A stretch of DNA of 24,774 nucleotides from a virus. Its lineage: Duplodnaviria; Heunggongvirae; Uroviricota; Caudoviricetes. Within the stretch, counting starts at the first letter, position 1, and every line of letters starts with the position of its first letter. The notes beneath the pieces were generated by a model. It was not told where the DNA came from. It made no database searches and worked only from the letters and a program-made list of their open reading frames with translations. Below, piece after piece: positions 1 through 24,774 of this stretch. The translations under genes and the position numbers were made by a program. The stretch spans positions 1-24,774 of IMG/VR virus record IMGVR_UViG_2778261448_000010; one strand, 5' to 3'.

Positions 1-90
1 TCACTCTGCCAGATGGCGCAATGCCATCTGGTATCACTTAAAGGTATTAAAAACAACTTTTTGTCTTTTTACCTTCCCGTTTCGCTCAAG
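1..90. other. Bacterial chromosomal flank (B' side of the lambda attachment site)
   Basis: The sequence adjoining the core (reverse complement CTTGAGCGAAACGGGAAGGTAAAAAGACAA...) matches my recollection of the E. coli attB B' arm. No phage-like ORF is present; the minus-strand frame ending at 1-3 is only 8 codons. Confidence 0.6.
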
Positions 91-105
91 TTAGTATAAA
101 AAAGC
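91..105. other. attR: attR core (lambda-type common core, reverse complement GCTTTTTTATACTAA)
   Basis: The exact 15-bp lambda att common core is present as its reverse complement, with a lambda P-arm-like sequence on one side and attB-like sequence on the other (P-O-B' on the minus strand). Confidence 0.75.
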
Positions 106-250
106 TGAACCAGAAACAGAAAAAATCATTAATCTCAATCCATTACAATACATTTGGCTTAAAAAATAGACTGTATAATACTGCAAAACACAACATATCC
201 AGTCACTATGAATCAACTACTTAGATAGTATTAGTGACCTGTAACAGAGC
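106..250. other. attP P-arm remnant with Int arm-type/IHF/Xis binding region
   Basis: The reverse complement reads ...TCTGTTACAGGTCACTAATAC...CAGTCACTAT...GTTCAGC up to the core, closely resembling the lambda P arm including CAGTCACTAT-type arm sites. It is AT-rich. Confidence 0.65.
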
Positions 251-251
251 A

Positions 252-292
252 TTAGCGCAAGGTGATTTTTTGTCTTCTTGCGCTAATTTTTT
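252..292 (+). terminator. sib: sib/tI-like hairpin plus T-tract (lambda int retroregulator/terminator)
   Basis: Plus strand TTAGCGCAA-ggtgattttttgtcttc-TTGCGCTAA followed by TTTTTT. This is a perfect 9-bp inverted repeat with a U-tract, matching the lambda sib/tI sequence as I recall it, on the strand an int transcript would use. Confidence 0.7.
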
Positions 293-426
293 GTCATCAA
301 ACCTGTCGCACTCCAGAGAAGCACAAAGCCTTGCAATCCAGTGCAAAGCTTTGTGTGTCTCAGTTTTGTCTCATCAACTATAATATATTAATGGCATATG
401 ATTGATTATTAGAGAGTTACATTAAC

Positions 427-2559
427 TCACTTAAAAGGAGTGTTTATCCTAACAACTCTCAAATAAACATCTCTTATATTTTCACCTCCATTTGGCCTTA
501 AAACTGTTGCTGAAATAACTCCACTTTGTGAAGCAGATACTGTTGCGTTATATACTAATGAACTATTGAATTGTTGAGCGTGTATTTGCCTTGATGTTGT
601 TTCAATTTGCTCTCCGGCTCTCATCATAACTGCATGTTCTGAAAAACACCCGCCAGCACCAGTTGTTGTTGTCGCTGTAACCTCAACTCTATAGAAATAC
701 ATAGCAAGCGTACCTGAGTTTACTGAATTATTTGGAACTGGCACTTGTACGGTTATTGAGACTGGGCCGCTATCAACTCCTGTTGCCTGAGCACACCAGC
801 CAATTTCACCATTCTGAGATATTAATGTGAATATGCATCGATCTTTTGTCCCAGCGTTTACCTGATACGTTGTTGTATAGGTGGCACCATAGAAATGCTC
901 TACGGTTATGGCAGTACCGAAGTTCTCTCCCCAACCAGTCCATGAAGGCCAGATACTGGCATTGCTTTTAATGGCTACGCCATTATTGATGCACTTCAGA
1001 GACACTTTCCCATTATTACAAGAACTCAAGAGCACAGGGACTCCAGGAATGCTGTTCCTTAGTGTTATCTCAACATCCGGCTGCTCTGCGGTTACCAACA
1101 TTAGTGGCTCGACTGTTCTTGGAACCGTATTGAGCGGTATGTTAATCTCCATGTCGCGCACTCGCGTCCTTGTACCGCCACATAGAAATGCGCATACACC
1201 ACCTACATTAGCAGGAAGATAAAGTCGAACACCTTCAAAAGACAAATCAAAAACATCCGATTGAGAATTTGTGATGATTTGAATAAGGTGTATAGGGCCG
1301 TTAACGTTTTCTCCCGTAAAATTACTCTTACTGGTGATGTTTCTGTAAATACCACCTGTTCCTGATACTTTTGCCGCAAACACTGGTGTGTCCGTCATGG
1401 TGCAAACTAAACCATCAACAACACACCCTGTTGACCCCGTGAGTTGTAAAGTTACATTGCAGCCGCCGTATCTGTTAGATAGAAGATTTCCGAACTCACC
1501 ACAGTTTGTTATAGAACCACTAGTGTTATTGATATACATCAGGTGTGACGGACCATACGCACCGAAACTTTCGTCATGCCGCAATGTCCCATACACGTAC
1601 TCAATATTGCATCCTGCAAAGTTGTTAATAAGTGCGCATGAATAGTGTGTACAATAGATGTTAGAGAAGAGAGAGCCTCTAAAATCACCCTCATAACCAG
1701 AAACAAGGAAGTCGTAGCGATTATCGCTGGTTTCACCGACTGCCATCGCATTAATCAATTTGAAACGATACGCGTTTGAATTCATCCCGATAAAGCCACA
1801 GAACGCAGCTTCCCACGGGCGAGTAATTCCATAGCGAGTGGTTGTTGTGCCCCCCAAAGGATAGCCGCCTTTATAGACAGCATTAAATCCCATAATGGTC
1901 ACATCAGGATTCCTGTTCATGAAGACCAGAAATCCAGTTTTCTCATGAGTTATTTTAGCACCGTTAAAATCAATATATGCACCAGCGGGAGGAGTGATGA
2001 CATTTTCCTCATTCATCACCATACGATATGTGGAACCTCTCTTCATGAGGCATCTTCCAGTCATAATAGCATTAGTCACCGCCACTGTATCATCAGCTAC
2101 ACCATCTCCAATTGCTCCATATTGCTCTGGCGTTGCCCAATATGACAAACTATCCGCTACTGTACCAGCCAAGTATCCAATTTTAGTTGCACCATCTTCT
2201 TCAGACAGTTCACTTCGAAATTGATCAGGGTCGTACTTCAGCACATTCGGAAAATAGAACTGCTGCACACCGTACGCATCATAAACAGCCATAGAATGGC
2301 CTTGCACAGTTACGAACTTGGCAATCTGTCCGTTATATACAGGGTAACCAGCAGCGTTAATGATGATTGGTTGCGAAACAGGAACGTGAGAGCCGTCTTC
2401 GTTTTCCACATAAACCTGAATCTGGTTTTCAGGATGTACAGGGTCAGTGTCAATTTTTCCGATATAAATTTTGCCATTGGCTACGGCTTTAAAAGATCGC
2501 GCCATAGTGAAGAGTTGCGAAGGCATCGATACGATCACATTGGCTGTAATGTCTGTCAT
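427..2559 (-). CDS. Tailspike protein (P22 gp9-like head-binding domain, HK620-like length)
   Basis: The 710-aa ORF starts [13 protein letters not shown]...[19 protein letters not shown]...[12 protein letters not shown]...NVLKYDPDQ, matching the conserved N-terminal head-binding domain of P22 tailspike. The remainder differs from P22 gp9. 710 aa is the length I recall for the HK620 tailspike. RBS GGAG lies upstream of the ATG. Confidence 0.9.
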
Positions 2560-2615
2560 TTAATTTGCTCCAGATACAAGGAATCGCCGCAGCGTAGCTA
2601 CGGTGAATTTTGGGC

Positions 2616-2642
2616 ATAAAAAAACCCAGCCGAAGCTGGGTC
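2616..2642 (-). terminator. Rho-independent terminator between antirepressor-like gene and tailspike
   Basis: Perfect hairpin CCCAGC-cgaa-GCTGGG (2625-2640), followed on the minus strand by a 7-U tract (plus-strand AAAAAAA at 2618-2624). Confidence 0.7.
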
Positions 2643-2659
2643 GTTGCGTTGGTTATCTG

Positions 2660-3590
2660 TCAGTAGTTATGTACTGAAGGAGGCAATTCTTTATTCTTAA
2701 GTCTCATCCATGCGGAAAGATTCGTTGGTCCGTCTGGCTCATTAATATCAACATCTCGTGTGTGGTTTATTAAAACGTCTCTCGCCATTCCGATAACATA
2801 CGAGAATTCATGACCGTAGTCGTAGCATCTGCCGGAATAGTTCGATTGAATTTGTTTTAGCGCCGGATACAGTTCGCGGAATAATGCCTGTGAGCGGTTG
2901 GCATAATCCCATAACCATACAAGGCTGTTTGCTTCTTTTGCAGAAAGCTCGTTGGTTTTCTTCTCTTGTTTGCCAATGAACTCACCTTCAAGTGGAACTC
3001 GAGCTGCAAGTGACAGTGCTTCGGTAAACTGCTCCTCACTGATTTCTTTGTACGAACATCCAAAATGGGATTTCAGTGACGACCACATGGTGATCATCGC
3101 CTTAGCCTGTTTTTCTTTTGGCAGAGACTGACCGCGACTCATGACGAGTTGTTTAATGGCTTCCTGCTGTTCAGTGGTGATTTTACCCGGCAACGCCTTT
3201 TTAGCTTTGCGTGGGTTAACTACATGGCCTTTAGTCCAGTACTCATAGAGCACATCGTCACACTCTTCCTGATACTGGATTACATTGTCGCGGATTTCAG
3301 GACGGACTTTGTTAGGGCTGATGGTTTGCAGCCAACCTGCAAGTTTGCGAAGTGCCAAACAAATAATCTCACGGCACTGTTCATCACCAGGAAGCTGCAT
3401 TGTGATTTTCACAATGGAGGTTTTAAACCGTTGCTTTATTTTCGTAAACTGTGAAGCCCAATCCATACCCATGCCTATCAACGATAGGTTTCATTGGGGT
3501 GTACGGTTCACCGTTGTGATTGACGACATAAAGCTCTGCGCCGTGGAATGGCACGTTGATAGTAGATACTGCCGTTGCTATACTTTTCAT
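2660..3590 (-). pseudogene. Antirepressor-like gene (P22 Ant N-terminal domain family) disrupted by a 1-bp frameshift
   Basis: A 55-codon ORF from ATG 3588-3590 ([38 protein letters not shown]...) ends at stop 3423-3425. The 273-aa track ORF (2660-3481, TTG start) continues the same domain in another frame ([14 protein letters not shown]...LPGDEQ...RKLAGWL...[12 protein letters not shown]...[15 protein letters not shown]). Removing the minus-strand A at about 3476 would fuse them into ...[16 protein letters not shown]... Confidence 0.6.
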
Positions 3591-3678
3591 GTCAGTTTTT
3601 CCTCAAAATTTACTGACGATTTAAGCCCGAGCTACTCGCAATAGGTTGTTTGATGGGTAAATCATGATTACTCCTTAT

Positions 3679-3700
3679 AAAAAACCCACCTGACGGTGGG
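3679..3700. terminator. Bidirectional intrinsic terminator-like hairpin downstream of the lipoprotein gene
   Basis: Hairpin CCCACC-tgac-GGTGGG (3685-3700) is flanked by AAAAAA on one side and TTTCATTTCTT on the other, giving a U-tract on both strands. Confidence 0.65.
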
Positions 3701-3709
3701 TTTCATTTC

Positions 3710-4141
3710 TTAATCTTGCTTCGTGGAAGGTATAAGAGATGCATTTGCCTCTTTTGGCTTCAATGTATACATCCCACCATTAAATGGATCAACAGCAAGC
3801 CAACCGATTAACCCACCAAACACAAGGTTTCCACCAATATACCAACCATTAGCATTGGCTTTGATTGGCAGGGTAACTGGTTCGTACCCATCCTTCTCCA
3901 TAGTGATCTGGTAGCTCTTTTTGCCAAAATAACTACCATCTGACTTGGCAAGAGTTACTCCTTGCGGGGTCTTACCTTGCGCAACAATCACGCCTGATTC
4001 GTCTTTTACCTTAAAGCTCGCACCGGAAGGGTTGCTGTTCACTTGCACAAGTTGCGTTTCATCACCAACAATAGTTGCGCACCCAGATAACATCATAGCA
4101 CCAGCAACGACGCCAATAATCCTCTTCATATCAATTTCCAT
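3710..4141 (-). CDS. Predicted outer-membrane lipoprotein with PEGA-like domain (moron; possible superinfection exclusion)
   Basis: The ORF has signal peptide MKRIIGVVAGAMMLSGC with lipobox LSGC, and Ala follows the Cys. The likely true start is the second ATG at 4127-4129. The central segment resembles a PEGA-type beta domain (...GKTPQGVTL...SYQITMEKDGYEPVTLPI) and the C-terminus is Gly-rich (GWYIGGNLVFGGLIGW). It has its own downstream terminator. Confidence 0.75.
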   Translation of the reverse strand: MEIDMKRIIGVVAGAMMLSGCATIVGDETQLVQVNSNPSGASFKVKDESGVIVAQGKTPQGVTLAKSDGSYFGKKSYQITMEKDGYEPVTLPIKANANGWYIGGNLVFGGLIGWLAVDPFNGGMYTLKPKEANASLIPSTKQD

Positions 4142-4246
4142 ATTTAAAAAACCGGAAACATCCTAATGACAAACCATTCAAATGTGAAGTAGGCAAAAGA
4201 TGTTTACTTTTTTCATGGTATCCTGCACAAAACTAAGGAGGTTGGC

Positions 4247-4570
4247 GTGTATACAACAGTTATCGTGATAGCTATCGCACTCATTGTGGTTCAGTACCAA
4301 CTGGCATCTTTAAAACAAAAGATATCTGACCTCAAGACTGAGAACGAAGCACTTAAAAACTCAATAAAAGATGAGAAGAACAAACTATCATTCACTATAT
4401 CTGATATTGAGCAATCCATTGAAATTATTGAGAATAATATTAACAGACTAAAAAAAGAAGATATTCATGAAATCAATGACAATATCAAGGATTTGAAATC
4501 TTGGCTTAGGAATGTAGGACAAATCGCCACATCAACACGAGATAAGCTCAATCCATCCATGGATGATTAA
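4247..4570 (+). CDS. Small bitopic membrane protein with N-terminal TM helix and coiled coil (moron of unknown function)
   Basis: This is the only convincing plus-strand gene. GTG start is preceded by a strong SD TAAGGAGG (4234-4241) with 5-nt spacing. The hydrophobic N-terminus is YTTVIVIAIALIVVQY, followed by a K/E/N-rich heptad-like region. Composition is visibly AT-rich relative to flanking structural genes. Its stop TAA (4568-4570) abuts the gp16 stop (4571-4573). Confidence 0.7.
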   Translation: MYTTVIVIAIALIVVQYQLASLKQKISDLKTENEALKNSIKDEKNKLSFTISDIEQSIEIIENNINRLKKEDIHEINDNIKDLKSWLRNVGQIATSTRDKLNPSMDD

Positions 4571-6697
4571 TTACTCCTGTGCTATTCCGCTTAGCGACGC
4601 TACAATGCCAGCCCTCGCTAAGCGATTGAACTCTTCGTTTCCAACTGCATCACGTATTGCTTTTACGGCGGCTTTATTTGCCATAAATCTGCGTTCCGCT
4701 GCCGCTAATGCTTCTTTGCTTCCGCCTGTTCTTACTGCTTTAGTGGCTTCCTGAACTGCTTTCTCTATCGCATACCGACCACTACGTGTGGTGGCAATTT
4801 TAGATACAGCGCCTTTTAACCCAGCGCCAACTAAAGCACCTGCGGCAGCGCCTGCAATGCCTCCTCCAGCGCCACCAACAATGGCACCTGATGTTGAGTT
4901 GGCAATTGCATTTAACACTGTTGATGTGACGTTGGATAAACCAGCATCCAGATCGCGTAGTACATTGGCAGTTCTCCCTGTTCTTTCAATATACTGCTGA
5001 GGTTTCACTGCTGCTCTTGCAAGAGTGCCATACGCATCAGCAATTCTTCCAAGCTCTGAGGAATATCTGCTAATGGCTTTTACATTTTGTGGAGTGAGTA
5101 TCTCTGCGATATGGTTAATTCCTGCTGCATCAGCTTTGCCACCACGTACACCATGCGAGATGGCATCCTGCAACATTGATGATATAGCAGGAACACGCTC
5201 TGATTCTGGCAGCGCGCGGATCATAGAATGGAATCCAGCAGGACCATTAAGGCCTTTAGCTGACGATGATTGAAGAGATTTTACTCCATTCGTAATCAGT
5301 GCATCTGTTGCCAAATCACGCCCAAAGACAGACTCTGCACTCTCTTGTGCGGATAACCTCGCTTTAGACAGATCATTAGCTTTTTGCCAGTCATCAAGAA
5401 ATCCGCCGTTTTCCGCCATTGTGCGCATATCATCAGTAATTGCCCGGCGTATTTCCCCTGCTCTCCTTGCCGCATTTGCCTCTCCGCTACGCTTATATTT
5501 TTGCTCCGCATCAGCAAATTTCGCTCTCCATGCTTTCATGCCATCAAATGTTACTCCACCTTGATTGTTTGCCTGAACAAACTGTTTCATTTCAGGAGTA
5601 AGCGGTATGCCAGCAGATCGCTCTGCCTGAATAACGGCATTACCATTTAGCATTCTTGCTTTTTGATTTGGCATTGTTGACCGCACGTCATCCCATGCCG
5701 CGCGCTCGGCATCCTTCATCTGATCAAGATTTTGAAGAATCCTTTGTTTTATAGCCGCACTTTTTTCTGATGCCGTTCCAGATGCGGCCCCAAATTCATC
5801 AAGGTTTCGACTTAACTTTGATGATATTTCGTTAAATGCTGCCTGATGGGCGTCCTGAACAATTCCTGGTGTTGATGCCAATGCTCCTTCGGCTTGTGCA
5901 ATTCCACGACTTCCAGATCGCATTCCTGGTGTTAATGCGTTTATATCAATTCCAGCAGACTCAGCCGCTTTTGCTACATCTTCGGACACATTAGCGGCCT
6001 GACTGGCAATTGACTGACGCCCAGCACCTGACTTTGCCATCCTGGAAACATCATTAGCAGAATTCAGTGCTGCACCACCAAGAGCCTGTGAAACCCTTGG
6101 CGCAATAACGCGCCCAAAACCTGAAAGAACGCCTTGAGCGCCAATATTGATACCACCGTTAATGGCAGCATTTTGTGCAAAGTCGCCCTCCTGATTTGCA
6201 GCATCAGCAAGAGAACCTGCAATCATGTTTCCTGCGGAACCGATGTCTCCTGCGAGCTTTGCTGGCGCTCCAGCAGCTTTTGCCGCTGTGCCAATTGGCA
6301 GGAGATACCCACCAATTGTTTCACCAGCTTGCGCGTAAGGGTCTGTCGGTCTGTCTACTGGACGATAAACATCATCCAAAACCTTGGGGCCACCAAGCCC
6401 CTGACTGATTGCATTAATCAGACTTGCGCCACCCTGCAATACGTCAAATGGTATGTTTACCAGACCACGACCAGCCTGTTCTGCAATTTGCCCTGCACTT
6501 TGACCACCAGTGAGCCAATCGCCAGCTTTTTGCATCAATGATGGTTCTTCACGTGCTGGTTCATTGCTATCCTGGCTGACAGTTTGTTGCTGAACAGACT
6601 GTCCAGCAAAATACTCATCAATGGCAGATCCAATATCTTCCGTGCTCGTACCATCAGGGAAGGTAAATGTCTTACCGTTTGCAGTTACTTTCATCAT
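4571..6697 (-). CDS. Ejection (E) protein gp16-like
   Basis: The 708-aa ORF begins [33 protein letters not shown], matching the P22 gp16 N-terminus as I recall it. It sits after gp20 in the conserved order 7-20-16. Confidence 0.85.
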
Positions 6698-8100
6698 TCC
6701 ACCGTAAATTGAATGCCTGATTTTGAGGTATATGATCCAACCTGATTCCGTGGTTCTCCTGAAGGTATCGAATCTTGTGCTGGCGCTGCGTCAGTATTCA
6801 ATGACATATACCGCTTAACAGCACTCCCCAATGATTCACCTTTTTTAACATCCAACCCCAATATCTGACCGCCATTACGCGATTGTCCAGGGTTGCCATT
6901 CGCGCTCATCCACTCAGCTTTAAACTCATTAAACTGCGCGTTTCGTCGCTCAAGGTTTGCCATTGCATCAAGCCATCTTGCGACCGTCTCAGGGTTATCC
7001 ATGTCAGTTGGCGCACCCTGTCTAACGATCTCAACGTCTTTATCCGTTGCTGGGCCGGGAGGTAGGAATTTAAGAACCTGACTGTTAACAAGGGCATTTT
7101 GGCGAATGCGCAAATCACGCAATGTCGTATCGCTTCCGGTAAGTTTTGCGAACATGTTCTGTGCGTTACCGAACAAACCTGTCGTTGGTTTTTCTGCTCT
7201 GAACTGTTGAGCAAGCGCACTCATAGAATTGGCTGAGTTTGATGATGCTGTGGCATTGTTTACAGCCGTCTCGATGCCTTTTTCCATGTTTACTGACAGC
7301 TTAGGTGCTTCGCTAATCAACTGCTGAGCCTTTTCCTGCGCTTGCTGCATCTTAAACCCGAACTCTTGCTGATCCAGAGCCAAGCGTTGTGCTGCGATAT
7401 TGTGCCCAGTCATTGCTGACTGATAGGAAAGGTTTTGCCCTCTCGCCTGAAGTGCTTCTCCGGCCTGATTGCTGCGGATTGTCTCTGCCAGCCTGCCTCG
7501 GTCAATCTCACGACCAGCCATCTTGTCCTGAACATTGAAGTAGTCAATCGGACCAAGAGCAGCCATTCCAAGGTGATCAACAAACTCACCAAATCCTGAA
7601 GGGTTCTGCTGATACATCTGAGCAACACTGTTAGGGTCAACACCGACGCGAGTCAGTTCCTTGGCGTTGTTTTGCAGCCATGATTGCATTGCTTCTGGAG
7701 ACGATGACGCAAGGCGTGCGCCAGCCGCTAAGGTGCCGATAGAATTACGCTGGTCTTCATCAATGAATCCCATGCCTTTACGAACGGATTCAATCTGGTC
7801 TGGATATTGAGTAGCCAACTGACGCAAAGCACCGCGATCACCAGACGCATAAGCATTAGCGTATGCCTGCTGAAATTCTTTCTGCCGCTGAGCCTGCTTT
7901 TCCTGCTGAAACACCCCCGCAATACCTGAAAGGCCTTGCAAAGCAGTCAGCCCAACATTGTTAGCGCCTGAACGCTCAATATCATTGTTCTGCCTAATAA
8001 GTTGAAGCGTATTGCCGATGTCATTTACGCTCGGAGCGTTTGAGTTGACGCCGCCGATACCAGCCAACAATCCGCCGTTTGTTCCTTGCCAAGTAGCCAT
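6694..8100 (-). CDS. Ejection (E) protein gp20-like
   Basis: The 468-aa ORF ([17 protein letters not shown]...) has the size and position of P22 gp20; its start overlaps the gp16 region. Confidence 0.8.
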
Positions 8101-8109
8101 GATTACCCC

Positions 8110-8802
8110 TTAAAACAACGAGCCAAGCAATCCGATACCAGCACCAATGCCAGCGCCCCAAGGTGTTGATGTTCCCAAAAGGCTGGCAAGACCTGCACCG
8201 GCAATCGCACCAGACGTTCCGCCACTAATTGCAGTCTGAAGACTTGATGGTTTATTGGCATTAGCAGCGGCAAGAGCTGCGCTTTGCTGTGCAATGCTGC
8301 TCATGTTGTTGGCGTACGTCTGCCCGGCGTTTGCCTGACCTTGCAGCGCACCAAGCCCAACGTTTGCCAGATTGTTGTAATTGCTCATCTGGTTTGATAA
8401 CCAAGACTGACCGAGTGTCGGCGCGATCGTAGCCAGTTGATTGCTTATGGCTGTCGAACCAAGTCCGCCAGTCGCTTCCGCAGCAGCAAGACTCTGGTAA
8501 CGAGCCTGACCTGCAAGGTCTTTATACTGCTGAGAATTGTAATACTGATTAAGTGCCTGTCCCTGACCTTCTAAACTGGAAAGATTCTGAAGCTGGTTAA
8601 CATACTGCTCCGCAAGCGGCGTGAACGGAGCAAGGTTTTTCATGATCGTCTGCCACTGCTGATTTTGCAGGTCTGCGGCATACTTCTGAGCTTCTGCGGC
8701 ATACTTTGCGCTTTTATCAGAACTGCCACCTTTCCCGCCTTTTTCAGGGCAATAAGGTTCCTCGCCGCGCAGTTTTCTGCCCATCTTAAATGCATATAAC
8801 AT
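8110..8802 (-). CDS. Ejection (E) protein gp7-like
   Basis: The 230-aa ORF MLYAF.MGRKLRGEEP..PEKGGKGGSSDKSA.YAAEAQKYAADLQNQQWQTIMKNL... closely matches P22 gp7 (229 aa) as I recall it. Confidence 0.85.
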   Translation of the reverse strand: MLYAFKMGRKLRGEEPYCPEKGGKGGSSDKSAKYAAEAQKYAADLQNQQWQTIMKNLAPFTPLAEQYVNQLQNLSSLEGQGQALNQYYNSQQYKDLAGQARYQSLAAAEATGGLGSTAISNQLATIAPTLGQSWLSNQMSNYNNLANVGLGALQGQANAGQTYANNMSSIAQQSAALAAANANKPSSLQTAISGGTSGAIAGAGLASLLGTSTPWGAGIGAGIGLLGSLF

Positions 8803-8804
8803 GG

Positions 8805-9260
8805 CTATCTCCCGTGATTCAGGAAGTCGATTAGTTCTTCGCGTGTGGCGCTGTAAAACGTCACGTCATCCACGCCTTTAAAGTATTTCTTGATGGTTCC
8901 GACACGCTTAAGGCCAATCATTGCGCAGTAAATCTGCCCGTGGCGGAATTTGCGTGCGGCGAACGATGTGACGCACTGAACGGTGGTGTTAGTCAGAATG
9001 TATTTCCAGAACTCCAGCCCGATTTCCTTGCTGAATCCACGAATCTCTGGCAGGTACATGGCGTGGCAATCGAATGTCAGCGGCTGAATCTCCTGATAGT
9101 AAACAATGCCGCCGAACTGCCCGTGCACGTTCACCTCAAAGTAACGGCATTCAGGTTTGTAGTCGTATCCATCACCGTTGTTGCTCCCGGCAATAATGTC
9201 AGGGTGATTTCCGACTGCTTCTATCAGGTCGATGTTTCGCGTTGGTTTGAACTGAATCAT
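8805..9260 (-). CDS. gp14-like virion/DNA-ejection assembly protein
   Basis: The 151-aa ORF lies between tail needle and gp7, the position of P22 gene 14. Confidence 0.65.
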   Translation of the reverse strand: MIQFKPTRNIDLIEAVGNHPDIIAGSNNGDGYDYKPECRYFEVNVHGQFGGIVYYQEIQPLTFDCHAMYLPEIRGFSKEIGLEFWKYILTNTTVQCVTSFAARKFRHGQIYCAMIGLKRVGTIKKYFKGVDDVTFYSATREELIDFLNHGR

Positions 9261-10108
9261 TACTGCTCCGCGATTATCTTGATGGTTGTGGCAGTAAACG
9301 CCGCAACATTCGACTGAATGGTTAACGTGCTGCCATTTGTGGCAAGAAAGCCGTCTTTATCCACGCTGAAGAACGTAGCTAACAGGATGTTATCGGTTGT
9401 TGTCGCTGCATTACGACTGCTGACCAACGTGTCAGGAACAGAGCCGGAAAAGGTTAGCTGCATTGACCTGTTGGCGGTTCCGCTGGGCCACGTCCCGACG
9501 ATCGACAGCTTGAAGAACAAGGTTTTGTTCTCGTTGAACACAACCATCTTGTTGTTAACAGTGTCGAAGAATGGTGCCAACGAGCCGGATGACGGCGTGA
9601 GCGTTTTCAGCAGGCTAACAAGGTTGGTCGGCGCTGTCGGGATGGTTACAGATACGCCAGAGTAAACAACCTCTGACTTCTTGCGATTAGTGGCATACTC
9701 CAGAGCATCGATGCGCGTTTCATGGTCTGAAAGCGTGTTTTGAATGGCGATAACTTCATCAGTCAGATAATCAATATCGTTTTCTGCTGTCGTTAATCGT
9801 GAATCAAGGCCGACTATCGCCGCTTCTGCGTTAGTGATCCTTGTTTCGTGGTCCTGTATCTTCGCTTCAGCCGATGCCAGTCGAATTTCGTGATCGACCA
9901 GAATCACATCCTGCTCATCGTTCCTGACCTGTGCATCATAAGCGCCCTGTCCGGCCTCGTTGGCTTTGTTAGCCACGTTACCAACATCAGTTCCCTGTGC
10001 GATAACGTAAAGCAGATACGACTGCGAGAAGATATTACGCGGAAGGACTGATGTGTCGAGTCGTGTAGCCTGAATGATTACCGGCACATTAAGATTCGAA
10101 TCAGCCAT
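9260..10108 (-). CDS. Tail needle protein gp26-like with C-terminal knob extension
   Basis: The 282-aa ORF has an N-terminal coiled-coil heptad region ([50 protein letters not shown]) followed by a beta-rich C-terminal domain. It sits between gp10 and gp14. Length fits the Sf6-type knobbed needle rather than the 233-aa P22 needle. Confidence 0.8.
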
Positions 10109-11526
10109 TACTCAATCCTTATCTGGCAGCCAGACAGAGTGACAGGTGACTTAGTGATAACGCGCAATTTGAAGCCAATGTTTTTCCTGATGCGCCCTAC
10201 TTTCTTCCACAAAACGCGTTTGTCGTAAACGAACGGTTCATTCTGCTCAATCATCTGCTCACGCCCGTAATTGATGCCGTCAGTGGTTGCAGAGAGGAAC
10301 AGGCGGTCAGCGTACTGCGCAACGCCAGTTGAAGATTCAACTTCAAGGTCGAAAACTCTGGCGTTATCTGCTTTGAACAACGGAGTAAACAGCAGGTGTT
10401 CTTGTTGCTTGTCGTACTGGCTGCCGATATCGAACTGCAGTTTCCCGGTAACAGATTCCAGCTTATCGCCGCACGTTATCTGATTGCCTTCGTAAATGAA
10501 GTCGATAGCGCGGTACACATCGTCATACAGGCCTGTTTTCAACACACACCATTGCGGACCATTGGCGCTTGAAGATGCGTCGTACACGAGGACGTGACGT
10601 GGAAGATGGATAATCAGCAATTCATGAGCATCAAAGCGCAACGATTCCATCACGCCATCAGCCAGTTCATCAGCAGTGTAGGAGCGGAGGATTTTCTCAA
10701 TGCTCGCGCTGGCGATTGGTGACACCTGACCGGAGCCGATGATGTATACAGACGGCGCACCTGTTGCCGGATTGCTTATGAACGCATACGAATCAGCAAA
10801 CGGCGTTTTGCAGTAAGTCCCGGCGATGCCTTTTTGCACCATCAGTGATGGCTGTGCGACATACAAAGCGGCACCAACGGTGGTTGCGCCAGTCAGGGAG
10901 AAATATTCAATCGTCGATGAGCCAAAGCAAACGATGAAGTCTCGCCATGTACCTATGCCGATGATGCCGTCCGGCTGCGATTCTGCGCGATATTGTGCGC
11001 TGTAACGGTCAGGATGCGATTCGTCTTCAAGGTCAGTGATAAACCACGAATCAGTTCCGTCTTTTGACCACGCATAACGCCCACGTAAGCGTGTAATGTC
11101 GCGGACTGAGCCTAACTCATACTGCGTGAATCCGCTGTCTGTAGGCCAGTTTGAGACGGTTTTAACCGTGCCATCATAGCGATACTCAACCAGTTGACCA
11201 TTAACGCCTACAGCCTGAGATGTTCGACCATGCGCCATTGATACGCGACCACTTCCGGCGACGTCACCGACTTCGCTTTCGCCTTTGTAGAGCTTGCCGC
11301 CACACACACGATAGACAGCATTCTGCGCCATGTTGTACTCGACGCCGCGCGATACACCGTTCACATCAGAGCGTTTGGCAATGCCCGGGAATGAGCGAAG
11401 ATATCCGCTGCTGTTCAGGATTTCTTTGGGGGTTGCCAACATATTCACTGGCAGATAGTCGATATAGTCGGCGTTTCGAAAGTCTTTGCCGACACCTTTC
11501 ATAAGCGGAAGTTGCTGAATCGGCAT
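10108..11526 (-). CDS. Tail hub protein gp10-like
   Basis: The 472-aa [52 protein letters not shown]... is near-identical over the N-terminus to P22 gp10 (472 aa) as I recall it. Confidence 0.9.
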
Positions 11527-11535
11527 TTATTCACC

Positions 11536-11997
11536 TCACGTACTCGGATCATCTTTCTCGATGTAAAACCGATTCCACGTAAACGCGCTTTTGTTACCAC
11601 TACCGCGAGGCATGTCATTTCTCCGCTCAAGTGGTGGTATTTTGGTTAAACCGATACAGATTGTCTGATATGCACTGTCAGCAGCGGTAAGGAGAGCGTC
11701 TGACGGCTGAATGACGTTATCCATGCACACTTGCACAGCGAGTTTCAAAGCGACGCCATCATTTGCCCATGCAGGGATACCTGAATCATCGTCAGGTAAC
11801 GGCATGATGCCGTTTTCTGTATCAGCAAACTGATACCCAAGCTCGATACCTTTTGCCTGCCATGCTGCCATCATGTCTTCGAGGTCATTAATGGCATCTT
11901 CAATTGCCTGAGGGTCAGCATCTGTCAACGTGGCATTGGAATACAGCCCGGCTTTTCGTAAAGCCTTAAGAACGAGATCACCCTTCGTTTTCGCCAT
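11536..11997 (-). CDS. Tail adaptor/head-completion protein gp4-like
   Basis: The 153-aa ORF ..KTKGDLV.KALRK.G...ATLTD..PQ...DA.NDLEDMMAAW.. matches the P22 gp4 N-terminal pattern and sits immediately upstream of gp10. Confidence 0.8.
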   Translation of the reverse strand: MAKTKGDLVLKALRKAGLYSNATLTDADPQAIEDAINDLEDMMAAWQAKGIELGYQFADTENGIMPLPDDDSGIPAWANDGVALKLAVQVCMDNVIQPSDALLTAADSAYQTICIGLTKIPPLERRNDMPRGSGNKSAFTWNRFYIEKDDPST

Positions 11998-12166
11998 CTT
12001 CTTCCGCCTTAGCCACTTTTTGCTTCGTTGCGGTTTCTTCAGGAGTTTTTACCCAGCCTTTTTTCAGGTGAGATTTAACTTCTTCGTCATCAACAATGAT
12101 GTAATCGACAGCAAACTGACCACAGGTGATCATGTTGCCCGGCTTATAGAGCATTGTTCGTGCCAT
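11978..12166 (-). CDS. Small hypothetical protein between coat and gp4
   Basis: ATG at 12164-12166 (MARTMLYKPGNMITCGQFAVDYIIVDDEEV..., 62 aa) is preceded by GGGAGAAG and placed just after the coat terminator. The track's longer start (12202) would lie inside the terminator hairpin. Confidence 0.5.
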   Translation of the reverse strand: MARTMLYKPGNMITCGQFAVDYIIVDDEEVKSHLKKGWVKTPEETATKQKVAKAEEDGENEG

Positions 12167-12177
12167 TGTCTTCTCCC

Positions 12178-12203
12178 AATAAAAATGGGGCCGAAGCCCC
12201 ACC
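12178..12203 (-). terminator. Intrinsic terminator immediately downstream of the coat gene
   Basis: Hairpin GGGGC-cgaa-GCCCC (12187-12200) followed on the minus strand by a U-tract (plus-strand AAAAAT 12181-12186), starting 5 nt after the coat stop. Confidence 0.65.
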
Positions 12204-12207
12204 TAAA

Positions 12208-13461
12208 TTACTGCCCGGCAATAACGATGCCCGTATATTCAGGAACCAGTACAGAGCAACCGTACAGAGTGGTGAAACGCGCAGTGGTTACGCCTTTGAT
12301 GTGGTCGAAGGCGTAAGACATGATCAGCGTAGCGCCCTGCTCGGTGGTTGCTGTCATTACCTGTGGACCCTGACCAGTCGGGAACGCCAGTTTGCCGTAC
12401 ATCAGTTCAACAGAACCATCAGCCCAGAACAGGTTAGCCGGTGCGGCATTTTTGTTGAGAATGGTGATTGCTGCGCTACTTGCCGCATTAGCATCAACGT
12501 TTGCATATGGACGGCTGGCGACATCCGCGTTGTCAGGCGGCAGAATTTTCGGGGAGATAGTTACTGTCGTTCCGCTAACTGCCAGAACGCGGAATACCTG
12601 CGGCTGCCCGGTGGTATCTTTGGTGATCTGGTGTACGGAATTCACCCCTGCGATGGTAAACGCATCGCCAACCTGCAAACCTTCAGCAGATACCGTAATG
12701 GTCCCCTGTCGGTTATCCACTGGCATATCGTTAGCATCTTTCGCTTCAACCTTGTGCGCAGGTGCTGCTGCCAGCGTAATGGAAGTTGCTGTACCCTTCG
12801 GAACACGACCAGAAATATCGGTCTTGTAGCTATCGAAGGACGCAACCGGAGGGATCTGCGCTTTTTCGTATGCTGTCAGGGTTGCGCCCTGAGCATAGGC
12901 ACGGTGACCAAGCTCGCCAGCAAGGTCTTTGTAGTTGAAGGGGTTCCAGAAAGAGCGGCGGTTGATACCCTGTGGTACACCAATCGCCGTCATGGTGGCA
13001 TCAATACCTGCCGCACAGTTCCACAAATCACGGCCCTGTGAACCAGTGGTTGAGTCAGCCATCGTGATCACGTTAGTAGCACGCTGCGTAACCATGGAAA
13101 TCAGGTCAGAGTCAATCTGTGCAGCAAGGCGCATACCTGCGGCGCGACCAGCTTCAGTTTTATGCTCAGGGTCACGCATTTCACGCGCATCCAGAGTGTA
13201 CAGAATGTTTTTCGGCTCCTTGAACACAGAAGGAACAAGGCGCTGAACCAGTGCTGTTGGCGTTTTGCTGCTGAGATCTAGGCCTTCTTCAATGTTCATG
13301 TGGTAATGCTGCGGACGATACAGAACATCACCTGCTCGCTGCATTGCTGTATCACCGGGACGGAATTTTTTAGCGTTACGGGAAACTACGCAGGCGGCCT
13401 CAAAGCCTTCAACGTAGTTTTCGAACATGATTTCAAGGTCTTTTGCTAATTGGTTAGCCAT
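12208..13461 (-). CDS. Major capsid (coat) protein
   Basis: The 417-aa ORF follows the scaffold gene and is followed by a terminator, the position of P22 gene 5. The 295-aa plus-strand ORF overlapping it is judged spurious. Confidence 0.85.
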   Translation of the reverse strand: MANQLAKDLEIMFENYVEGFEAACVVSRNAKKFRPGDTAMQRAGDVLYRPQHYHMNIEEGLDLSSKTPTALVQRLVPSVFKEPKNILYTLDAREMRDPEHKTEAGRAAGMRLAAQIDSDLISMVTQRATNVITMADSTTGSQGRDLWNCAAGIDATMTAIGVPQGINRRSFWNPFNYKDLAGELGHRAYAQGATLTAYEKAQIPPVASFDSYKTDISGRVPKGTATSITLAAAPAHKVEAKDANDMPVDNRQGTITVSAEGLQVGDAFTIAGVNSVHQITKDTTGQPQVFRVLAVSGTTVTISPKILPPDNADVASRPYANVDANAASSAAITILNKNAAPANLFWADGSVELMYGKLAFPTGQGPQVMTATTEQGATLIMSYAFDHIKGVTTARFTTLYGCSVLVPEYTGIVIAGQ

Positions 13462-18970: not shown

Positions 18971-19189
18971 TTAATCATCTGGGTAATTAAGCGGCATCCA
19001 GTGTGTAACCTTGCTTGCTCCTGAATCGATGAATGCCTTTGTTCTCTGCCAGTAAGAGCCCATACATGATAGTTTGAACACGTCACCAGTATCAGTAAGA
19101 GCTATAACCTCTTTAGACCACATCCCTTCTTTGCTTTCTGGTAGCCGGTGTTCAACATTGATCCATTGGTTTCCGTTATCATCCATCAC
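18971..19189 (-). CDS. DUF551-like small phage protein
   Basis: The 72-aa ORF ends ...THWMPLNYPDD, a pattern typical of DUF551 proteins. The ATG start is more likely at 19186 than the GTG at 19189. Confidence 0.5.
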   Translation of the reverse strand: MMDDNGNQWINVEHRLPESKEGMWSKEVIALTDTGDVFKLSCMGSYWQRTKAFIDSGASKVTHWMPLNYPDD

Positions 19190-19626
19190 AACCTCGTCTA
19201 GTTGTTCGCCATAGATTCAGTGGCAGGCGGTGACGAGTCCGCTTTTCGGGAGCTACCCTAGCCACTGCTTGATTCTATCCGATGTCTTTCCATCAGTCCG
19301 CCACCACAAAGAATCTTTTTTGCCATAAGGCAGGAGGTTCATCTTTCAGTGGCTGCCAGTGTTATTTCCCCACTTACTGGCTTGGGTTGCTTCGTGGTAC
19401 TGCCGTTAACTGGTTGCCCAGAATAAATTCCGGTTTCATTATCAAGCCCACCCGTAGATAGGCTTTGTAATGAACTGGCTCTTATCTCAACGCAGCCCCT
19501 TACCGCGCGCCAGATGCTCAATATCAAGCATCAGCAATGAGATGTTTAATCTGGATTCACTCCAGAAGTGATCACCACCCTGTCTACAGAGCCAGATGTG
19601 AAGGATGATGAGTAAAATTATCGCTA

Positions 19627-23071: not shown

Positions 23072-23240
23072 CGTCTTCTTCCTCGTACATTGAGCTATTC
23101 GGATCGCTCATCAGTTCTGCGCAGCAGTGCTCACACACGTGAACTTCCAGCACATGCAGCTTCTGACCGCAGTTAGCGCACGTTAAAGCCCGCTCGACGC
23201 TTTCTTTCTGGTATTGAAGAGATTGGGATGGGCTAAGCAT
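23064..23240 (-). CDS. NinF-like small zinc-ribbon protein
   Basis: Likely start at ATG 23238-23240 ([40 protein letters not shown]...), with CxxC...CxxCC and an acidic tail. It resembles a lambda nin small protein, which I take to be NinF. Confidence 0.55.
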   Translation of the reverse strand: MLSPSQSLQYQKESVERALTCANCGQKLHVLEVHVCEHCCAELMSDPNSSMYEEEDDE

Positions 23241-23640
23241 GGCTTTCACCATTAAAAAGTCGCTTGTAAGCATCAATGTCTCGTTTTGCTTCACCAAGCT
23301 TTCGTCTTAATTCCATGTTTTCTGATTCAAGCTTTTCCATGTCTTGTTGGTATCGATCGCGGTGTTCTTTCCATGCTTTTCGATACGCCTTCATGTATGT
23401 CGTATTGGACTTTCTCTTTGCCTGACGAACAGCGTGATGGTTTTCTACAAACCACTCAGGGTCGTTAAATGCTGCTCTGGCGCATGTATACCAATAATTT
23501 GCTGCCTCCCTGTTTAGCCAATAAATACTGATAAATGGCAACTGTATCGACACCATTTTTCGTTGAGACTCTTTCTCGCCAAACATGTGCCCTTTTTTGA
23601 TGCTAAGGCCAAATCCAGGTTGAATTAAAAGCATTGTCAT
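23233..23640 (-). CDS. Hypothetical nin-region protein (YbcN-like?)
   Basis: Likely start at ATG 23638-23640 ([24 protein letters not shown]...), which overlaps the upstream stop as ATGA. About 135 aa. Confidence 0.5.
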
Positions 23641-23813
23641 TTCCTCGCACGATGTCTTAGCCACCGGATATCCCACAGGTGAGCCGTGTAGTTGAAGGTT
23701 TTTACGTCAGATTCTTTTGGGATTGGCTTGCGTTTATTTCTGGAGCGTTTCGTTGGAAGGTATTTGCAGTTTTCACAGATTATGTCGGTGATACTTCGTC
23801 GCTGTCGTCTCAT
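23637..23813 (-). CDS. Small basic nin-region protein (NinD/NinE-like, CxxC)
   Basis: Likely start at ATG 23811-23813 ([30 protein letters not shown]...), overlapping the methyltransferase stop as ATGA. About 58 aa. Confidence 0.5.
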
Positions 23814-24337: not shown

Positions 24338-24774
24338 GCAGCCCGATCTCCCCATCTTGCTTTCCACTCCAGAGCCAGTCGCGCTTCGTCTGACCACTTA
24401 ACGCCATGTTCTGTACCGAATGCCTGTATAAGCTCTAATAGCTCCGCAAATTCGCTTACACGCATCCTGCTGGTTGACTGGCCTATTACCACAAAGCCAT
24501 TCCCGGCAAGGTTAGGAACAACGTCCTGCTGCTTTAATGCTGCGGTAAACACGCACTTCCAGCTTTCTGCATCCAGCCAGCGACCATGCCATTCAACCTG
24601 ACGAGAGACGTCACCAAGGCAAGCCCAAAGCTTTCGGTTTTGGTCTAAGCTGCGGTTGCGTTCCTGAATGGTTACTACGATTGGTTTGGTTGGGTCTGGA
24701 AGAATTTGCTGTACCGCGTGAATAGCGTTTTGCTGATGTGCTGGAGATCGAATTTCAAAGGTTAGTTTTTTCAT
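24334..24774 (-). CDS. ninB: NinB (Orf-family recombination mediator)
   Basis: The 146-aa ORF MKKLTFEIRSPAHQQNAIHAVQQILPDPTKPIVVTIQERNRSLDQNRKLWACLGDVS... is near-identical to lambda NinB as I recall it. Its ATG is the last three bases of the window. Confidence 0.9.
   Translation of the reverse strand: MKKLTFEIRSPAHQQNAIHAVQQILPDPTKPIVVTIQERNRSLDQNRKLWACLGDVSRQVEWHGRWLDAESWKCVFTAALKQQDVVPNLAGNGFVVIGQSTSRMRVSEFAELLELIQAFGTEHGVKWSDEARLALEWKARWGDRAA

Follow-up and report, generated by a model that had tools for sequence, protein, structure and literature searches.

A junction with the order P-O-B' is called attR in the standard nomenclature of bacteriophage lambda. In lambda lysogens of Escherichia coli K-12 this junction lies at the ybhC/ybhB site beside bio. 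The lambda attachment site (att-lambda) is a heavily used intergenic hotspot, and P22-like prophages have been found at five E. coli sites (PMC3603311). In the lambda excisive complex, IHF bound at H' of attL permits the C'-P'1 and B-P'2 bridges (PMC4880445). According to a passage in PMC5300877 that cites Schindler and Echols (1981), the sib/tI element destabilises int mRNA transcribed from pL on unintegrated phage DNA.

A P22-like virion module is combined with a lambda-type P arm in the phages JEP4 (MT740315) and Huey (PQ850609), in the prophage-derived record vB_EcoP-720R6 (ON470605, hereafter 720R6) and in the prophage of E. coli 702/18 (NZ_CP074701). A tailspike or tail-fiber gene adjoins the P arm in all of them. 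The Int protein of 702/18 is 99.4% identical to lambda Int, and those of JEP4, Huey and 720R6 are 98.9-99.2% identical. The 702/18 prophage runs from ybhC through the attL core, int, xis, a P22-like genome, the tail fiber gene and the attR core to ybhB. Its two cores are 41.7 kb apart, and its Xis is 98.6% identical to that of lambda. JEP4 has int on one side of the core and the tailspike gene on the other. A literature search on P22-like phages with an integrase at ybhC found nothing, and the genome announcement of Huey contains no statement on integration.

The 720R6 record opens with 7.6 kb of host DNA (ON470605.1, 1-7628; uvrB, bioD, bioC, bioF, bioB, bioA and ybhB), which precedes attR. 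This segment was considered as evidence of lateral or specialised transduction and rejected. The sole paper on such phages is an in-silico prophage study of clinical genomes. Since the record probably originates from that study, an over-extended record boundary is a more likely source of the host DNA than a transducing particle.

Phage CUS-3 integrates at argW. Among phage records, 64 encode a lambda-like Int at E <= 1e-100, and CUS-3 is not one of them. The HK022-type att/Int module is carried by HK022, mEp235 and the P22-like phage Gally, whose Int is 74.6% identical to lambda Int.

Here we describe a virus-derived stretch of 24,774 nucleotides (the window). Judging from sequence comparisons, its first 300 bases are very probably the attR (P-O-B') of a P22-like prophage (Lederbergvirus, CUS-3/Huey clade) that occupies the classical lambda site between ybhC and ybhB, beside the bio operon.

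Core and host side of the junction

The 15-bp lambda core GCTTTTTTATACTAA has a single exact copy in the window (Table 1), and none of 100 dinucleotide-preserving shuffles yielded a match with one mismatch allowed. On the minus strand, P-arm-like DNA is followed by the core and then by host-like DNA; it is this order, P-O-B', that gives the junction the label attR. The reverse complement of 1-105 is identical at 105 of 105 positions to E. coli K-12 MG1655 807328-807432, i.e., to the attB core and its B' side. We aligned seven sequences: the window attR, attR and attL of 702/18, attR of 720R6, attB of K-12, and attP of lambda and of JEP4. Homology to the P arm switches to host homology exactly at the core, which is the pattern expected from Int-mediated recombination.

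Both window ends lie at gene boundaries. At position 1 the sequence directly adjoins the ybhB stop codon, and at position 24774 the ninB ATG begins (minus strand). A search with the tailspike protein led to an NCBI draft contig of 55,453 bp (GCA_002518045.1, NOCY01000026.1), which is identical to window positions 1-12559. Past window position 1 the contig continues through ybhB, bioA, bioB, bioF, bioC, bioD and uvrB, a host flank that shares 98.5% identity with K-12. At the ninB side, by coordinate arithmetic, about 450 bp of contig follow the window. The continuation into ybhB-bio-uvrB, together with the K-12 identity, indicates that bases 1-90 are chromosomal.

These results bear out a sequence-only reading of the same DNA in every part that could be checked. 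That reading had recognised the exact lambda core on the reverse strand, with DNA like the lambda P arm, including arm-type Int sites, on one flank and DNA like the B' arm of E. coli attB on the other. It had also taken bases 1-90 to be chromosomal and had placed the right end of a prophage at the lambda attachment site. Comparison of 1-105 with K-12 and of 87-357 with lambda left its host and P-arm assignments standing.

Other look-ups concerned the far part of the window. The 147-aa ORF at 23233-23676 gave no match; the gene was probably called with another start. NinB occurred in 1685 of the collection's blocks; the 10 places listed among these were unrelated mosaic prophages and gave no information on the far end. 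No single complete RefSeq E. coli genome contained the whole window, the best coverage being 73%.

Table 1 Features of the attR region and the adjoining tailspike gene (window coordinates)
Feature	Position	Strand	Remarks
Host B' side of attB, ybhB-proximal part of the ybhC-ybhB intergenic region	1-90		K-12 identity
Host hairpin CCAGATGGC-GCAAT-GCCATCTGG	9-31		Inside host B' side
B' core-type half-site region ACTAACTTG	87-95		Motif position
Common core O GCTTTTTTATACTAA	91-105	-	Predicted strand-exchange site; exact match to lambda/attB
7-bp overlap TTTATAC	94-100		Within core; motif position
C core-type half-site CAGCTTTTT	99-107		Identical to lambda
H2-equivalent IHF site TCTCAATCCATTA	133-145	+	1 mismatch to consensus WATCAANNNNTTR
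X2 / Fis-site equivalent	157-177	-	A-tract kept; 4 positions differ from lambda
X1 Xis-binding site TATGTTGTGTTTT	185-197	-	Identical to lambda
P2 arm-type Int site (lambda "int 2" region)	196-215	-	19/20; arm consensus CAGTCACTAT intact at 200-209, plus strand
H1 IHF site AATCAACTACTTA	211-223	+	Perfect consensus, identical to lambda H1
P1 arm-type Int site CTGTTACAGGTCACTAATAC (lambda "int 1" region)	228-247	-	20/20 identical to lambda
Lambda tI terminator / sib retroregulator hairpin	244-294	+	Stem 251-287, U-run 287-292; just outside P1
Rest of lambda b-region homology, then mosaic joint with spacer downstream of the tailspike gene	295-426
Tailspike gene, 710 aa	427-2559	-	Stop codon at 427; Pfam Head_binding E = 5.8e-66

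P arm and tI/sib hairpin

Bases 87-357, reverse-complemented, match lambda 27473-27742, the P arm with tI/sib, at 249/273 positions (91.2%). Homology to lambda stops at 357, and homology to HK106 and JEP4 at about 374. In comparison with the attR of K-12 lambda lysogens, the core, the B' host arm, the ybhC/ybhB site beside bio and the sites P1, H1 and X1 are the same, whereas the segment with X2, Fis and H2 (about 119-177) has diverged. Beyond the b-region stub lambda has its ea/b-region and J-side genes, whereas the window has a P22-type tailspike gene past about 357. The X2/Fis equivalent was assigned by its position relative to lambda on the site map of PMC4880445; most of its differences from lambda are common to the isolated phage JEP4. 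IHF, Xis, Fis and Int are predicted to bind at these P-arm sites, and the junction is predicted to be active in recombination.

The departure of the H2 equivalent from the IHF consensus WATCAANNNNTTR is an A-to-C substitution at window position 134, which is position 2 of the consensus. H2 reads TATCAATATATTA in lambda. In the nearest P-arm alleles, those of ATCC 8739 and FDAARGOS_1288, it reads TATCAATCC(A/C)TTA, a perfect consensus. The substitution (A134C) is absent from these two closest alleles, from lambda and from three other aligned P arms, and it is present in every examined copy of the block formed by the tailspike gene and attR. It is the only oddity of this attR.

The tI/sib hairpin lies within the 91.2%-identical block and differs from that of lambda by one inserted A. 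Its predicted RNA fold has an energy of -24.6 kcal/mol (z = -4.39), and none of 200 shuffles was as stable. A scan of 1-700 for consensus terminators found nothing; the hairpin, whose stem is interrupted, was recovered by folding. Its orientation, on the strand read from int, is such that it would stop transcripts coming from the core/ybhB side. In the prophage it probably stops read-through from ybhB. As the retroregulator of lambda int, the element would be detached from int in the prophage and sit at attR. Because integration separates sib from int, we propose that int mRNA of an induced prophage would escape sib-dependent decay.

Virion module and the tailspike-att block

Beyond the att region the window holds a complete-looking P22-like late region together with lysis and nin genes. 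The P22-type set was recognised by the Pfam families P22_CoatProtein, P22_Tail-4, Phage_stabilise, Phage_tail_NK, P22_gp7, Inj_translocase, Phage_P22_gp16 and Head_binding, and the P22 head-binding domain forms the N-terminus (residues 1-113) of the tailspike. The genes include those for the tailspike, the antirepressor, the ejection proteins gp16, gp20 and gp7, gp14, gp26, gp10, gp4, coat, scaffold, portal and terminase. The lysis and nin part includes holin, lysozyme, Rz, Q, ninH, rusA and ninB.

An Rfam int-alpA RNA motif (RF02996) was also detected at 19206-19268 on the minus strand; it scored 45.1 bits, above the gathering score of 35.8. The motif, which directly precedes a 72-aa DUF551 ORF (18971-19189, also minus strand), has the lysis genes on one side and the DUF2560 and small-terminase genes on the other.

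The closest sequenced phage overall is CUS-3 (CP000711), which covers 70% of the window (2216-24774) at 94.9% nucleotide identity. The shared part comprises the head-binding part of the tailspike and the ejection, head, terminase, lysis and nin genes, whereas the receptor domain of the tailspike and the att region differ. The end of CUS-3 homology at 2216, within the tailspike gene and directly past its head-binding domain, marks the receptor domain and the att region as a separate mosaic block. JEP4, Huey, 720R6 and 702/18 share 50-71% of the window length at about 94-96% identity. Of these, 702/18 and 720R6 have the same ybhC/ybhB site and the same attR core as the window. All four differ from the window in the receptor-binding domain of the tailspike and in the immI region; in their P arms, sib and the b-region stub are set apart by an additional segment of about 100 bp, and the H2 sites match the consensus. 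The HK022-type module has an arm architecture homologous to that of the window. The match between Gally and the window extends from 159 onward, i.e., over the outer P arm and sib, and the lambda core at 91-105 is thus outside it.

The 2133-nt tailspike gene has no mismatches across four contigs, and the 426-nt attR region has none across five. In the contigs with identical tailspike and attR, the upstream prophage regions (immI, ejection proteins) differ, and the host flanks differ by 0-1.9%. This suggests that the tailspike-att block is exchanged, or is spreading, as a unit. The identity of attR amid varied host flanks and prophage backbones also argues that the A134C allele is compatible with spread, and it is what a mobile, functional att module would lead one to expect.

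Distribution of the lambda-type core and P arm

A lambda-type core with a P arm was found in 1988 of 5426 complete E. coli genomes. In 1263 of these genomes at least 80% of window positions 1-420 is matched, i.e., attR is present in the same place. The P-arm allele occurs with 98% identity in different settings. In ATCC 8739 (NC_010468.1, 6001-12170) it lies beside a lambda-like remnant disrupted by IS1. In FDAARGOS_1288 (NZ_CP070007.1, 6001-12170) it lies beside the gtrABC genes of O-antigen modification and SfV-like myovirus genes for baseplate and tail fibers. As the same allele thus adjoins DNA of siphovirus, podovirus and SfV-like myovirus type, the lambda att cassette is common to three tail morphotypes.

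A degenerate P-O-B' copy was observed in PPompW_132418 (LC567822.1, 6392-6669), with 81% identity to window positions 16-301. Its core has a 1-nt deletion and its B' side an 8-nt deletion, while the sib hairpin is kept. The copy is located in lambdoid prophages integrated at ompW, with a J-like host-specificity tail gene on one side and espO, nleG and espM, which encode T3SS effectors, on the other. Its sequence and position suggest a fossil left by an aberrant, lambda-bio-like excision before the effector cargo was acquired.

The sequence-only reading had also seen a mosaic arrangement here, a P22-like virion module paired with lambda-type integration specificity. The pairing itself is real, as the Pfam set, the identity to CUS-3 and the P arm all indicate. 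It is not unusual: this combination is already known from isolated P22-like phages in GenBank, in which a lambda int-attP cassette lies beside the tailspike gene, and from many genomes.

Alternative origins of the junction

An origin of the core and the arm-like motifs by chance in AT-rich intergenic DNA can be dismissed. The region is indeed AT-rich, which is all that speaks for chance, but no shuffle reproduced the core, 270 bases match lambda at 91%, and 105 bases match K-12 at 100%. It is also very improbable that the window comes from a phage genome with acquired host DNA, namely a specialised transducing (lambda-bio-like) derivative that carries P-O-B' and bio-side DNA. Phage DN1, the best phage match for 1-357, does have an annotated attR and a transduced bio locus, and degenerate P-O-B' relics are present within the PPompW lambdoid prophages. 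However, at least 9.5 kb of host DNA, from ybhB to beyond uvrB, was read beside the junction in the matching contig, whose 55 kb consist of about 30 kb on the host side and 25 kb of prophage by coordinate arithmetic. A P22-type head holds roughly 43 kb, and a contig longer than this capacity argues against a transducing derivative. The near-identity of the host flank to K-12 and the undegraded B' side, identical at all 105 positions compared, count against it as well.

Another possibility is that the attR is genuine but the prophage is grounded, either through loss or rearrangement of its int/attL end or because the A-to-C change in H2 weakens bending by IHF and makes excision poor. We consider such a defect unlikely. 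It would fit the position of the int/attL end, which is outside the window and, by coordinate arithmetic, off its contig, and it would fit an H2 that is off consensus at 134, unlike the perfect sites of the closest alleles. The same site also harbors degraded remnants whose P arm is 98% identical, such as the one in ATCC 8739 with its IS1 insertions. On the other hand, the virion, lysis and nin ORFs of the 24.7-kb window are all full length and collinear with those of the isolated phage CUS-3. The identical attR allele, H2 variant included, recurs across the differing host flanks and different backbones, which suggests that the allele is still mobile or at any rate not decaying. Moreover, a single consensus mismatch alone does not predict loss of IHF binding. 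We therefore favor the attR of a P22-like prophage at the lambda site.

Discussion

The preferred reading, an attR of a P22-like prophage between ybhC and ybhB, draws on sequence identity, site conservation and genomic context observed in the window and the matching contig. That a lambda-type P arm accompanies a P22-type virion module implies a lambda int/att cassette, and we infer that int, xis and attL are present in this genome. The attL (B-O-P') would be expected to show the sequence GCTTTTTTATACTAAGTTGG after ybhC.

The junction would have originated when a lambda-type Int recombined attP (P-O-P'), flanked by int and the tailspike gene, with attB (B-O-B'). Exchange inside the 15-bp core, at the 7-bp overlap TTTATAC, would have joined the P arm to the host B' side. 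Upon induction attR would serve as one of the two excision substrates. IHF at H2 would bend the P arm, and three Xis molecules at X1, X1.5 and X2, aided by Fis, would bend it again. The second bend would allow the Int subunit bound at B' to bridge to P2. The attR complex would then synapse with attL, with strand exchange across TTTATAC.

The H2 variant gives room for a further idea, which is pure speculation and in our view very unlikely to be true: A134C may weaken or delay excision and thus constitute a "slow-excision" variant that boosts mobilisation of host genes from the lambda site. If so, late excision of a headful-packaging P22-like prophage whose late genes face attR would favor packaging in situ, and packaging in situ would amount to lateral transduction of the adjacent ybhB-bio-uvrB region. 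A passage of bioRxiv 10.64898/2026.05.19.726188 that cites Fillol-Salom et al. 2021 reports lateral transduction by P22 and by E. coli members of this phage clade.

For annotation, the right boundary of the prophage is fixed to the base by the core, and the host locus is att-lambda beside ybhB/bio. The locus opens no new question; it is another instance of lambdoid phages exchanging their integration cassettes as modules.
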